From: a virus
Lineage: Duplodnaviria; Heunggongvirae; Uroviricota; Caudoviricetes
IMG/VR virus record: IMGVR_UViG_2537561710_000006
DNA length: 4,333 nt
Strand: one strand, 5' to 3'
In this document: positions 1-4,333 of the stretch, piece by piece
Layout: every line of letters begins with the position of its first letter
How positions within the stretch are numbered: the first letter of the stretch is position 1
Notes under the pieces: generated by a model
The model's database searches: none
What the model was told of the DNA's origin: nothing
Seen by the model: only the letters and a program-made list of their open reading frames with translations
Position numbers and translations under genes: made by a program

Positions 1-225
1 GATGACCCTGAAAATATCAGCTATGCCGGACAGGGCGTGCGTGTTGAAGGCTCCAGCCCGTCCCTGTTTGTCCGGACTGATGATGTGCGGCAACTGCGGC
101 GTGGAGACACGCTGACCATCGGTGAGGAAAACTTCTGGATAGACCGGATTTCGACGGATGATGGCGGAAGCTGTCATCTCTGGCTTGGGCGGGGCGTACC
201 GCCTGCCGTTAACCGTCGTCGCTGA
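1..225 (+). CDS. FII: Head-tail joining protein gpFII, C-terminal part (5' end lies upstream of the window)
   Basis: Frame 1 is open from base 1 to TGA at 223-225. The translation (...DDPENISYAGQGVRVEGSSPSLFVRTDDVRQLRRGDTLTIGEENFW...HLWLGRGVPPAVNRRR) matches my recollection of the lambda gpFII C-terminus. It sits immediately upstream of Z, as in lambda. Confidence 0.9.
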   Translation, partial: DDPENISYAGQGVRVEGSSPSLFVRTDDVRQLRRGDTLTIGEENFWIDRISTDDGGSCHLWLGRGVPPAVNRRR

Positions 226-236: not shown

Positions 237-815
237 ATGGCCATAAAAGGTCTTGAGCAGGCCGTTGAAAACCTCAGTCGTATCAGCAAAACGGCGGTGC
301 CTGGTGCGTCAGCAATGGCCATTAACCGCGTTGCTTCATCCGCGATATCGCAGTCGGCGTCACAGGTTGCCCGTGAGACAAGAGTACGCCGGAAACTGGT
401 AAAGGAAAGGGCCAGGCTGAAAAGGGCCACGGTTAAAAATCCGCAGGCCAGAATCAAGGTTAACCGGGGGGATTTGCCCGTAATCAAGCTGGGTAACGCG
501 CGGGTTGTCCTGTCCCGACGCAGGCGTCGTAAAAAGGGGCAGCGTTCATCCCTGAAAGGTGGCGGCAGCGTGCTTGTGGTGGGAAACCGTCGTATTCCCG
601 GCGCGTTTATTCAGCAACTGAAAAATGGCCGGTGGCATGTCATGCAGCGTGTGGCCGGGAAAAACCGTTACCCCATTGATGTGGTGAAAATCCCGATGGC
701 GGTGCCGCTGACCACGGCGTTTAAACAGAATATTGAGCGGATACGGCGTGAACGTCTTCCGAAAGAGCTGGGCTATGCGCTGCAGCATCAACTGAGAATG
801 GTAATAAAGCGATGA
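237..815 (+). CDS. Z: Minor tail protein gpZ (tail completion protein), 192 aa
   Basis: ATG at 237 with upstream G-rich RBS, stop TGA at 813-815. The translation (MAIKGLEQAVENLSRISKTAVPG...SRRRRRKKGQRSS...[10 protein letters not shown]) is recognisable as lambda gpZ, and the 192-aa length matches. Confidence 0.95.
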   Translation: MAIKGLEQAVENLSRISKTAVPGASAMAINRVASSAISQSASQVARETRVRRKLVKERARLKRATVKNPQARIKVNRGDLPVIKLGNARVVLSRRRRRKKGQRSSLKGGGSVLVVGNRRIPGAFIQQLKNGRWHVMQRVAGKNRYPIDVVKIPMAVPLTTAFKQNIERIRRERLPKELGYALQHQLRMVIKR

Positions 816-1207
816 AACATACTGAACTCCGTGCAGCCGTACTGGATGCACTGGAGAAGCATGACACCGGGGCGACGTTTTTTGATGGTCGCCCCGCTGT
901 TTTTGATGAGGCGGATTTTCCGGCAGTTGCCGTTTATCTCACCGGCGCTGAATACACGGGCGAAGAGCTGGACAGCGATACCTGGCAGGCGGAGCTGCAT
1001 ATCGAAGTTTTCCTGCCTGCTCAGGTGCCGGATTCAGAGCTGGATGCGTGGATGGAGTCCCGGATTTATCCGGTGATGAGCGATATCCCGGCACTATCAG
1101 ATTTGATCACCAGTATGGTGGCCAGTGGCTATGACTACCGGCGCGACGATGATGCGGGCCTGTGGAGTTCAGCCGATCTGACTTATGTCATTACCTATGA
1201 AATGTGA
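812..1207 (+). CDS. U: Tail tube terminator protein gpU, 131 aa
   Basis: ATG at 812 overlaps the Z stop (ATGA at 812-815), stop TGA at 1205-1207. The translation ([70 protein letters not shown]...) is recognisable as lambda gpU, and the 131-aa length matches. Confidence 0.95.
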
Positions 1208-1214: not shown

Positions 1215-1955
1215 ATGCCAACACCAAATCCTCTGGCACCGGTGAAAGGGGCCGGGACCACACTGTGGGTTTATAACGGGAACGGCGACCCATATGCAAA
1301 CCCGCTTTCAGACAATGACTGGTCGCGTCTGGCAAAGGTTAAAGACCTGACGCCCGGCGAACTGACCGCTGAGTCCTATGACGACAGTTATCTCGATGAT
1401 GAAGATGCGGACTGGGCCGCGACCGGACAGGGGCAGAAATCCGCTGGAGATACCAGCTTCACGCTGGCGTGGATGCCCGGAGAGCAGGGGCAGCAGGCGC
1501 TGCTGGCGTGGTTTAATGAAGGTGATACCCGTGCCTATAAAATCCGCTTCCCGAACGGCACGGTCGATGTGTTCCGCGGCTGGGTCAGCAGTATCGGTAA
1601 GGCGGTGACGGCGAAGGAAGTGATCACCCGCACGGTGAAAGTCACCAACGTGGGACGTCCGTCGATGGCAGAAGATCGCAGCACGGTAACAGCGGCAACC
1701 GGCATGACCGTGACGCCTGCCAGCACCTCGGTGGTGAAAGGGCAGAGCACGACGCTGACCGTGGCATTCCAGCCGGAAGGCGCAACCGACAAGAGCTTCC
1801 GTGCGGTGTCTGCGGATAAAACAAAAGCCACCGTGTCGGTCAGTGGTATGACCATCACCGTGAAAGGTGTTGCTGCAGGCAAGGTCAACATTCCGGTCGT
1901 ATCCGGTAATGGTGAGTTTGCTGCGGTTGCAGAAATCAACGTCACCGCCAGTTAA
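1215..1955 (+). CDS. V: Major tail tube protein gpV, 246 aa, with C-terminal Ig-like (Big_2-type) domain
   Basis: The ORF track starts at 1185, but the ATG at 1215 is preceded by GAGGA and gives the lambda-like N-terminus [20 protein letters not shown]...; the upstream in-frame ATG at 1185 lies inside U. Stop TAA at 1953-1955. The body ([48 protein letters not shown]...) is recognisable as gpV. The C-terminal ~85 aa ([25 protein letters not shown]...[19 protein letters not shown]) has the typical Big_2 Ig-like pattern. Confidence 0.95.
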
Positions 1956-1970: not shown

Positions 1971-2393
1971 ATGTTCCTGAAAACCGAATCATTTGAACAT
2001 AACGGCGTGACCGTCACGCTTTCTGAACTGTCAGCCCTGCAGCGTATTGAGCATCTCGCCCTGATGAAACGGCAGGCAGAACAGGCGGAGTCAGACAGCA
2101 ACCGGAAGTTTACTGTGGAAGACGCCATCAGAACCGGCGCTTTTGTGGTGGCGATGTCCCTGTGGCATAACCATCCGAAGAAGACGCAGATGCCGTCCAT
2201 GAATGAAGCCGTTAAACAGATTGAGCAGGAAGTGCTTACCACCTGGCCCGCGGAGGCAATTTCTCATGCTGAAAACGTGGTGTACCGGCTGTCCGGTATG
2301 TATGAGTTTGTGGTGAATGATGCCCCTGAACAGGCAGAGGACGCCGGGCCTGCAGAGCCTGTTTCTGCGGGAAAGTGTTCGACGGTGAGCTGA
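1971..2393 (+). CDS. G: Tail assembly chaperone gpG, 140 aa (zero-frame product)
   Basis: ATG at 1971, stop TGA at 2391-2393. The translation (MFLKTESFEHNGVTVTLSELSALQRIEHLALMKRQAEQAE...VSAGKCSTVS) is recognisable as lambda gpG. The slippery heptamer lies 6 codons before the stop. Confidence 0.95.
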   Translation: MFLKTESFEHNGVTVTLSELSALQRIEHLALMKRQAEQAESDSNRKFTVEDAIRTGAFVVAMSLWHNHPKKTQMPSMNEAVKQIEQEVLTTWPAEAISHAENVVYRLSGMYEFVVNDAPEQAEDAGPAEPVSAGKCSTVS

Positions 2394-2809
2394 GTTTTGC
2401 CCTGAAACTGGCGCGCGAGATGGGGCGACCCGACTGGCGTGCCATGCTTGCCGGGATGTCATCCACGGAGTATGCCGACTGGCACCGCTTTTACAGTACC
2501 CATTATTTTCATGATGTTCTGCTGGATATGCACTTTTCCGGGCTGACGTACACCGTGCTCAGCCTGTTTTTCAGCGATCCGGATATGCATCCGCTGGATT
2601 TCAGTCTGCTGAACCGGCGTGAGGCTGACGAAGAGCCTGAAGATGATGTGCTGATGCAGAAAGCGGCAGGGCTTGCTGGAGGCGTTCGTTTTGGCCCGGA
2701 CGGGAATGAAGTTATCCCCGCTTCCCCGGATGTGGCGGACATGACGGAGGATGACGTAATGCTGATGACAGTATCAGAAGGGATCGCAGGAGGAGTCCGG
2801 TATGGCTGA
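1971..2809 (+). CDS. T: Tail assembly chaperone gpG-T fusion, made by -1 programmed ribosomal frameshift at 2369-2375; about 279 aa (G residues 1-135 plus 144 T-frame codons from 2375 to 2806, stop TGA 2807-2809)
   Basis: The -1 frame ORF 2375..2809 has no plausible independent start or RBS and begins exactly at the G GGA AAG slippery heptamer near the end of G. Its translation (..FDGELSFALKLAREMGRPDWRAMLAGMSSTEYADWHRFYSTHYFHDVLLDMHF...) matches the lambda gpT segment. The G/G-T arrangement is an established conserved feature of long-tailed phages. Confidence 0.9.
2369..2375 (+). other. -1 programmed ribosomal frameshift slippery heptamer G GGA AAG (recoding signal for G-T)
   Basis: GGGAAAG, read in the G frame as gcG GGA AAG, fits the X XXY YYZ pattern. 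The -1 frame is open from here to 2809 and encodes the T-like sequence. Confidence 0.9.
2788..2793 (+). promoter_or_regulatory. Shine-Dalgarno (AGGAGG) for H, embedded in the 3' end of the T frame
   Basis: A consensus AGGAGG lies 8 nt upstream of the H ATG at 2802. Confidence 0.7.
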
Positions 2810-4333
2810 ACCGGTAGGCGATCTGGTCGTTGATTTAAGTCTGGATGCGGCCAGATTTGACGAGCAGATGGCCAGAGTCAGGCGTCATTTTTCCGGTACG
2901 GAAAGTGATGCGAAAAAAACAGCGGCAGTCGTTGAACAGTCGATGAGCCGGCAGGCGCTGGCTGCACAGAAAGCGGGAATTTCCGTCGGGCAGTATAAAG
3001 CCGCCATGCGTATGCTGCCTGCGCAGTTCACTGACGTGGCCACGCAGCTTGCAGGTGGGCAAAGTCCGTGGCTGATCCTGCTGCAACAGGGGGGGCAGGT
3101 GAAGGACTCCTTCGGCGGGATGATCCCCATGTTCCGGGGGCTTGCCGGTGCGATCACCCTGCCGATGGTGGGGGCCACCTCGCTGGCGGTGGCGACCGGT
3201 GCGCTGGCGTATGCCTGGTATCAGGGCAACTCAACCCTGTCCGATTTCAACAAAACGCTGGTCCTTTCCGGCAATCAGGCCGGGCTGACGGCAGATCGTA
3301 TGCTGGTCCTGTCCAGAGCCGGGCAGGCGGCAGGGCTGACGTTTAACCAGACCAGCGAGTCACTCAGCGCACTGGTTAAGGCGGGGGTAAGCGGTGAGGC
3401 TCAGATTGCGTCCATCAGCCAGAGTGTGGCGCGTTTCTCCTCTGCATCAGGCGTGGAGGTGGACAAGGTCGCTGAAGCCTTCGGGAAGCTGACCACTGAC
3501 CCGACGTCGGGGCTGACAGCGATGGCGCGCCAGTTCCATAACGTGACGGCGGAGCAGATTGCGTATGTTGCTCAGTTGCAGCGTTCCGGCGAAGAAGCCG
3601 GGGCATTGCAGGCGGCGAACGAGGCCGCGACGAAAGGGTTTGATGACCAGACCCGCCGCCTGAAAGAGAACATGGGCACGCTGGAAACCTGGGCAGACAG
3701 GACAGCACGGGCATTCAAATCCATGTGGGATGCGGTGCTGGATATTGGTCGTCCTGATACCGCGCAGGAGATGCTGATTAAGGCAGAGGCCGCGTTTAAG
3801 AAAGCGGACGATATCTGGAATCTGCGCAAGGATGATTATTTTGTTAACGATGAAGCGCGGGCGCGTTACTGGGATGATCGTGAAAAGGCCCGTCTTGCGC
3901 TTGAAGCCGCCCGAAAGAAGGCTGAGCAGCAGAGTCAACAGGACAAAAATGCGCAGCAACAGAGCGATACCGAAGCGTCACGGCTGAAATATACCGAAGA
4001 GGCGCAGAAGGCTTACGAACGCCTGCAGACGCCGCTGGAGAAATATACCGCCCGTCAGGAAGAACTGAATAAGGCACTGAAAGACGGGAAAATCCTGCAG
4101 GCAGATTACAACACGCTGATGGCGGCGGCGAAAAAGGACTATGAAGCGACGCTGAAAAAGCCGAAGTCGTCAGGAGTCAAAGTGTCAGCCGGTGAGCGTC
4201 AGGAAGACCAGGCGCATGCTGCCCTGCTGGCGCTTGAAACCGAGCTCAGGACGCTGGAAAAACACAGCGGTGCGAATGAGAAAATCAGCCAGCAGCGTCG
4301 CGATTTATGGAAAGCGGAAAATCAGTATGCGGT
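2802..4333 (+). CDS. H: Tail tape measure protein gpH, N-terminal ~510 aa (3' end beyond the window)
   Basis: ATG at 2802 with a strong RBS, overlapping the T-frame stop by 8 nt. The frame stays open to the window end (510 codons), so it is missing from the ORF track, which lists only stop-terminated ORFs. The translation (MAEPVGDLVVDLSLDAARFDEQMARVRRHFSGTESDAKKTAAVVEQ...GGMIPMFRGLAGAITLPMVGATSLAVATGALAYAWYQG...) is recognisable as lambda gpH. It continues into a long charged A/E/K/Q/R-rich, probably helical region typical of tape measure proteins. Confidence 0.95.
   Translation, partial: MAEPVGDLVVDLSLDAARFDEQMARVRRHFSGTESDAKKTAAVVEQSMSRQALAAQKAGISVGQYKAAMRMLPAQFTDVATQLAGGQSPWLILLQQGGQVKDSFGGMIPMFRGLAGAITLPMVGATSLAVATGALAYAWYQGNSTLSDFNKTLVLSGNQAGLTADRMLVLSRAGQAAGLTFNQTSESLSALVKAGVSGEAQIASISQSVARFSSASGVEVDKVAEAFGKLTTDPTSGLTAMARQFHNVTAEQIAYVAQLQRSGEEAGALQAANEAATKGFDDQTRRLKENMGTLETWADRTARAFKSMWDAVLDIGRPDTAQEMLIKAEAAFKKADDIWNLRKDDYFVNDEARARYWDDREKARLALEAARKKAEQQSQQDKNAQQQSDTEASRLKYTEEAQKAYERLQTPLEKYTARQEELNKALKDGKILQADYNTLMAAAKKDYEATLKKPKSSGVKVSAGERQEDQAHAALLALETELRTLEKHSGANEKISQQRRDLWKAENQYA

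Follow-up and report, generated by a model that had tools for sequence, protein, structure and literature searches.

A close match to lambda's G-T frameshift site in the tail gene cluster of a lambdoid (pro)phage of E. coli

The overlapping reading frames G and T, which are flanked by V (tail tube) and H (tape measure), raise the question of how the downstream frame is translated: by ribosomes that slip back one base near the end of G, as the first-pass annotation of this DNA had proposed, or from a start codon of its own. The window, by which we mean the whole 4,333-nt stretch analysed, aligned gap-free over its full length with lambda 7741-12073 at 96.4% identity (FII'-Z-U-V-G-T-H'), with 159 nucleotide differences over the 4333 bases (features in Table 1). 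The top phage match was PhiR26_1 (97.7%), the top E. coli match was to O157:H7 prophages (99.2%), and related sequence was carried by 4028 of the 5426 complete E. coli genomes. These lambda, phage and E. coli prophage matches indicate therefore that the window comes from a lambdoid phage or prophage with a tail of the lambda type. The naming of the two products as gpG and gpG-T was supported by the location between V and H and by profile matches, with bit scores of 215 for G against TIGR01674 (cutoff 74) and 189 for T against TIGR01715 (cutoff 77), together with PF06894 and PF06223; PHROG 32165 is a single 290-position profile that spans both G and T. A PDB sequence search with the G-T fusion protein gave no match. 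The evidence presented below indicates that in this lambdoid (pro)phage of E. coli the locus almost certainly serves as a lambda-type G/GT −1 programmed ribosomal frameshift site; it is a near-identical copy of the lambda G-T site, and the phenomenon is already known, not new.

Table 1. Coordinates of the genes and sequence elements discussed, counted from the first base of the window
Feature	Position	Strand	Basis or description
FII, 3′ end	1-225	+	
Z	237-815	+	Minor_tail_Z match above curated cutoff
U	812-1207	+	Phage_tail_U match above curated cutoff
V, major tail tube protein with C-terminal Ig-like domain	1215-1955	+	PF16461 (Phage_TTP_12) and PF02368 (Big_2); lambda annotation
G, tail assembly chaperone gpG, 140 aa, 0-frame product	1971-2393	+	PF06894 (Phage_TAC_2), E=1.8e-59; TIGR01674 equivalog, E=2.5e-64; lambda annotation
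G/T overlap	2330-2393	+	T frame open from 2330, G stop 2391-2393; used part 2375-2393
Upstream 9-bp hairpin, CCUGCAGAG/UUCUGCGGG	2349-2371	+	−13.2 kcal/mol; 3′ arm includes GGG of the heptamer
Slippery heptamer G GGA AAG, almost certain −1 programmed ribosomal frameshift site	2369-2375	+	Phase verified; identical to lambda
T, 144-codon reading frame in the −1 phase of G, almost certainly read solely as the C-terminal portion of gpGT	2375-2809	+	PF06223 (Phage_tail_T); TIGR01715, E=1.9e-56
Candidate three-way junction	2383-2453	+	Outer helix 2383-2390/2446-2453; small hairpin 2393-2409; GC-rich hairpin ~2409-2424/2429-2444
H, tape measure protein, 5′ part (first 510 codons)	2802-4333	+	PF06791 (TMP_2), E=2.7e-70; lambda annotation

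The anatomy and homology of the site were read directly from the window. Base 2369 is codon position 3 of the G frame (ORF 1971-2393), which reads GCG GGA AAG at this point and continues TGT TCG ACG GTG AGC to the TGA at 2391-2393, so that GGGAAAG at 2369-2375 stands, as annotated, in the phase G GGA AAG with the G stop as the sixth codon after it. Reading the −1 frame from base 2375 gave 144 sense codons up to the TGA at 2807-2809, which is overlapped by the start of H (ATGGCTGA), and joining 1971-2375 to 2375-2809 gave a fusion of 279 aa; the open frame of 144 codons and the fusion of ~279 aa proposed earlier were thus recovered. Upstream, a stop at 2327-2329 limits the open −1 frame to 2330 onward. 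The window genes contain five in-phase X XXY YYZ heptamers in ~1440 codons, and only the one at 2369-2375 opens a long −1 ORF. Gene order, heptamer, 5-codon distance to the G stop, 144-codon T frame and 279-aa fusion are all the same in the lambda G/GT system (Levin, Hendrix & Casjens 1993; Xu, Hendrix & Duda 2004, 2013, 2014). No base differs from lambda in the heptamer, the 17 nt ahead of it or the 40 nt after it; within 2300-2500 the window departs from lambda at four positions (2319, 2334, C2351T and T2416C), none of them at the slip site. At the protein level, gpG differs from its lambda counterpart at five residues (L59V, Q70K, T94A, N117D and T122A), and the T protein at none. Given the 96% identity, the window copy would be expected to behave like the lambda site, and no feature of its sequence speaks against this reading.

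The lambda G-T frameshift has been a textbook case of recoding since 1993. E. coli possesses a single tRNA-Lys (mnm5s2UUU), which pairs weakly with AAG, and A_AAG is therefore a shift-prone core. By analogy with lambda, most ribosomes would read G to its TGA and release the 140-aa gpG, while a few percent would slip with tRNA-Gly on GGA in the P site and tRNA-Lys on AAG in the A site, both tRNAs re-pairing one base back on GGG and AAA. According to general decoding rules, tRNA-Gly (UCC) should be able to re-pair from GGA to GGG, and the junction would be Gly-Lys in either frame. After the slip, the T frame would be read from 2375 to 2809 to give the 279-aa gpGT (...SAGK-VFDGEL...; junction peptide ...PVSAGKVFDGELSFALK). 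As the tail is built, gpH, the tape measure protein, would be coated by gpG in many copies and by a few gpGT through their G part, the T part of gpGT would bring in the tube protein gpV, and neither chaperone product would stay in the virion.

For the products, their ratio and their roles, this account draws on published lambda work and would carry over to the window by analogy. According to PMC5009743, which cites Levin 1993 and Xu 2013/2014, the gpG:gpGT ratio is ~30:1 and critical, both products are required, the G domain binds gpH and the T domain binds gpV, and neither product is in the virion. The statements of the first-pass annotation on lambda, namely that gpG and a low-abundance gpG-T are both required and that their ratio matters, are likewise present in the literature (PMC5009743, PMC3296357, PMC7618472). 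The lambda frameshift occurs at G_GGA_AAG, where ~96% of ribosomes stay in the 0-frame and ~4% shift (PMC3296357), and tRNA-Lys (mnm5s2UUU) reads both AAG and AAA, the phage yield and the balance of gpG to gpGT both changing with its level of thiolation (PMC3296357, PMC7618472). G_GG.A_AA.G ranks among the top three heptamers for efficiency in E. coli (PMC4066793), and in a reconstituted in vitro system G GGA AAG was slippery and G GAA AAG less so (PMC6924986).

The use of the site was then assessed by comparison with diverged relatives, comprising N15, HK225, phi80, mEp213, LLS, PhiR12_4, an Stx1 phage and ASU11, 26 Enterobacterales prophages with a T-protein identity of 36-78%, and 160 N15-type and phi80-type viral contigs. 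The slip-site count covered 295 loci with a recognisable T frame, representing 91 distinct 102-nt segments. The A_AAG core stood at the homologous position in 294 of these loci; the chance expectation for an in-phase heptamer in the 21-codon overlap is ~0.07, and the retention of the slip site in all loci except one therefore removes chance as an explanation. The heptamers counted over the 295 loci were GGAAAAG (183), GGGAAAG (106), GGTAAAG (3), AAAAAAG (2) and GGCAAAG (1). The sole locus without A_AAG has G_GGA_AAA (L261, 692-698), and the rare variant G_GCA_AAG was seen at L147, 695-701. N15, phi80, HK225, mEp213 and LLS have homologous G and T genes, and their slip site occupies the equivalent codon, in most cases at a distance of 5 codons from the G stop, but they differ from the window in carrying a shorter T (113-115 codons) and G GAA AAG, on which the P-site tRNA-Glu re-pairs imperfectly and which is the less slippery sequence in vitro (PMC6924986).

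Synonymous variation across these relatives was observed to change frame at the slip site. The slip-site codons had a synonymous entropy of 0 (Lys AAG in 30/30, Glu GAA in 23/23 and the preceding Ala GCG in 17/17), Glu, Lys, Pro, Val and Thr codons near the slip site varied freely at their two-fold and four-fold sites, and the six overlap codons showed a low synonymous variability of 0.33 vs 0.64 overall. By codon-position entropy in 10 diverged phages, the most variable position in the 24 nt before the heptamer was position 3 of the G frame (1.37 vs 0.77/0.55), and from the heptamer onward it was position 3 of the T frame (0.56 vs 0.23/0.20), a peak that includes the 68 nt preceding the first conserved ATG. 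The conceptual fusion proteins of the relatives aligned unbroken across the junction, and the T frame was conserved from the first post-slip codon as F/L-x-G/S-E-L-x-F-x-L-K-L-A-R-E-F/M-G-R-P-D-W-R-A-M-L. These comparisons illustrate neatly how a recoding site can be located from the point at which synonymous variation changes frame. The G stop lay 5 codons from the slip site in 74 of the 91 distinct segments, 1 codon in 15, and 0 and 13 codons in one each; a fixed 5-codon distance was rejected as a defining feature on the strength of these 1-, 0- and 13-codon cases, and as judged from the aligned segments the conserved feature is the slip site itself and not the position of the stop. In the copy from Shigella flexneri SFBU0723 (L052, 695-796), one deletion and one insertion, each of 1 nt, lie just 3′ of the heptamer and the G ORF is disrupted upstream; from its sequence this looks like a decaying prophage copy.

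T could instead be an ordinary gene in its own right that initiates at GTG 2375 or one of the internal ATGs (2420, 2444 or 2456), the heptamer being coincidental, and most records describe it as separate: in the RefSeq/GenBank entry of lambda and in many relatives T is a free-standing 144-aa CDS from the GTG (lambda 10115, equivalent to window 2375), in the records of other relatives it is annotated from an internal ATG, and ATG 2444 and ATG 2456 are indeed conserved as Met codons. GTG 2375, whose G is the last base of the heptamer, is the only start-like codon of the −1 frame before 2420. The earlier statement that the −1 frame has no start of its own is hence literally incorrect, but it stands in functional terms, as this GTG has no properly spaced Shine-Dalgarno (GGGAAA directly adjoins it) and is GCC, GTC or GCA in relatives. 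ATG 2420 is TTC or TTT in most relatives, and a search for a spaced Shine-Dalgarno ahead of 2375, 2420, 2444 and 2456 found none. What weighs further against independent initiation is that the 23 codons of the T frame that precede ATG 2444 encode a strongly conserved peptide and show their variation at third positions of that frame, and are therefore translated; as this stretch lies before any conserved start codon, only ribosomes arriving in the G frame can deliver that translation. Nor would a coincidental heptamer account for the frozen synonymous positions of the slip-site codons, and gpGT, with no free gpT, is what published lambda work finds (Levin 1993, cited through PMC5009743 and PMC3296357). 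We consider a separate T gene very improbable.

The same Gly-Lys junction peptide would also arise if RNA polymerase dropped one base in the GGGAAA run and generated a subpopulation of frameshifted mRNAs, and the Stx-type relatives do carry a six-A run (AAAAAAG) on which such slippage might occur. The runs of three G and three A are, however, far shorter than the lengths known for polymerase slippage, the relatives with GGTAAAG and GGCAAAG retain only AAA, and the conservation of the codon phase and of the tRNA-Lys A_AAG core fits ribosomal slippage instead. Moreover, loss of tRNA-Lys U34 thiolation shifts the gpG:gpGT ratio, which is a translational effect (PMC3296357). Transcriptional slippage thus appears even less probable than a separate gene, and −1 frameshifting by the ribosome at the heptamer is the reading followed below.

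Whether RNA signals around the heptamer assist the shift was considered against well-characterized bacterial sites. At dnaX and IS911, where frameshifting runs to tens of percent, stimulation has been demonstrated for an SD-like element upstream and for a hairpin or pseudoknot downstream. What the window shares with E. coli dnaX and IS911/IS3 is the X XXA AAG heptamer, the single tRNA-Lys and two products in a fixed ratio. Unlike these sites, the window has no Shine-Dalgarno-like element 6-17 nt before the heptamer (GGAGG, AGGAG, GGAG, GAGG, AGGA, GGGG and GGGA are absent in the 30 nt upstream), its downstream structure is a candidate, and the efficiency in lambda is ~3-4%. An Rfam scan of the window (E<=1) returned no known frameshift element and one chance miRNA-like match on the minus strand of H. 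The upstream hairpin at 2349-2371 is more stable in its lambda version (−15.4 kcal/mol, with C at 2351), C2351T weakening the window version, and it is specific to the lambda clade. It was rejected as a functional element and is probably incidental, given that N15, phi80 and Stx-type relatives lack it and keep the slip site, and that its 3′ arm is the heptamer itself.

Downstream of the heptamer, the first-pass annotation had noticed no obvious strong structure by eye and took this to match a largely heptamer-driven lambda site. This held for the range 2376-2440 that it had put forward for folding, in which the minimum of −20.9 kcal/mol (z −0.33) was no more stable than shuffles, but that range cuts off a possible 3′ strand, and longer folds yielded a candidate three-way junction that starts 7 nt 3′ of the heptamer. 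The fold of 2340-2480 had a z of −1.98, and that of 2378-2464 reached an MFE of −38.9 kcal/mol with a z of −1.93 against synonymous recodings, a null of resampled synonymous codons that suits coding sequence. The T2416C difference from lambda turns a U-G into a C-G pair in the candidate downstream hairpin. Among 30 relatives, the mean z was −1.73 at the candidate structure vs −0.78, −0.63 and −0.22 in three control segments. A consensus fold of 9 sequences (−30.8 kcal/mol) retained the GC-rich hairpin inside the outer helix, and that of 30 sequences collapsed to −2.7 kcal/mol. Over the 91 distinct sequences 92.9% of cells could pair, with only one clean covarying pair (A-U in 68, G-C in 17), which is in essence one split that separates lineages. 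Because the arms of the helices code for the invariant peptides LAR and WRAM, conservation by itself explains most of the pairing; synonymous suppression over the candidate structure was no outlier, 12 of the 159 sliding windows being equally low or lower. The signal was missing in the Stx-type, Kluyvera, Klebsiella, Pantoea and Proteus relatives, which retain the slip site. A family-wide conserved downstream structure was consequently rejected, since the 30-sequence fold collapses and distant relatives break both helices and keep the slip site.

Some contribution of the sequence context to frameshifting is nevertheless likely, because bare heptamers in E. coli reporters gave only 2-10x a ~0.05% background, well under 1% (PMC4066793), vs ~4% in lambda (PMC3296357), a gap of ~10-fold. 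A more specific model, in which the three-way junction at 2383-2453 would be a lineage-restricted 3′ stimulator of lambda, N15 and phi80-type sites that raises the shift from <1% to the ~3-4% needed for the 30:1 ratio, and one that Stx-type (A_AAA_AAG), Kluyvera, Klebsiella, Pantoea and Proteus relatives would have dropped or supplanted by other means, is in our estimate unlikely. Levin and colleagues reportedly noted in 1993 that 3′ sequences had some influence, although no simple structure could be recognised in them. If that is so, a real stimulator would refine an old detail and open no new topic; a specific candidate structure is now defined. That the more slippery A_AAA_AAG of Stx phages compensates for the missing structure is speculation, as it is based on two distinct sequences.

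The way in which the T product is recorded deserves attention in its own right. Among the records compared, a joined G-T CDS is annotated only in LLS and the slippery site is marked only in N15 and LLS; one record labels the GGG of the heptamer as the ribosome binding site of T. Because most records annotate a stand-alone T from the non-conserved GTG, and related sequence is present in so large a part of the complete E. coli genomes, annotation pipelines misdescribe the T product in thousands of prophages.

Two other places in the window resemble frameshift sites. At the Z/U junction (803-815), Z ends in ATA AAG CGA TGA with an in-phase A_AAG at 806-809, two codons before the stop, and U (ATG 812) lies in the −1 frame of Z, so that a −1 slip would give a Z-U fusion with 132 further codons. 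This junction sequence is shared with lambda, HK630 and PhiR26_1, and the A_AAG, being only a tetramer, is expected to be very inefficient without a stimulator. In H, an in-phase G_GGG_GGG (a run of seven G) at 3089-3095 is followed by a −1 frame open for 83 codons. E. coli ribosomes shift poorly on G-rich heptamers (PMC4066793), and the G7 run is possibly an indel site.

Two observations concern related copies of the region. In several O157:H7 genomes, a group II intron (an ltrA reverse transcriptase/maturase, antisense) splits gpU in the 99.2%-identical copy, as exemplified by E. coli O157:H7 F6294 (locus L299, 1117-3500) at the equivalent of window ~1117; the window has no such intron. Searches by tblastn also found copies ~98-100% identical to the T protein of the window on short or low-coverage contigs in assemblies labelled with other names (Neobacillus, Oceanobacillus, Kitasatospora, Shewanella, Pseudomonas, Chromatium, Leeuwenhoekiella, Enterococcus, Marinifilum, Pseudoxanthomonas, Psychrobacter and others), and these G-T copies are most likely contamination by laboratory lambda DNA.
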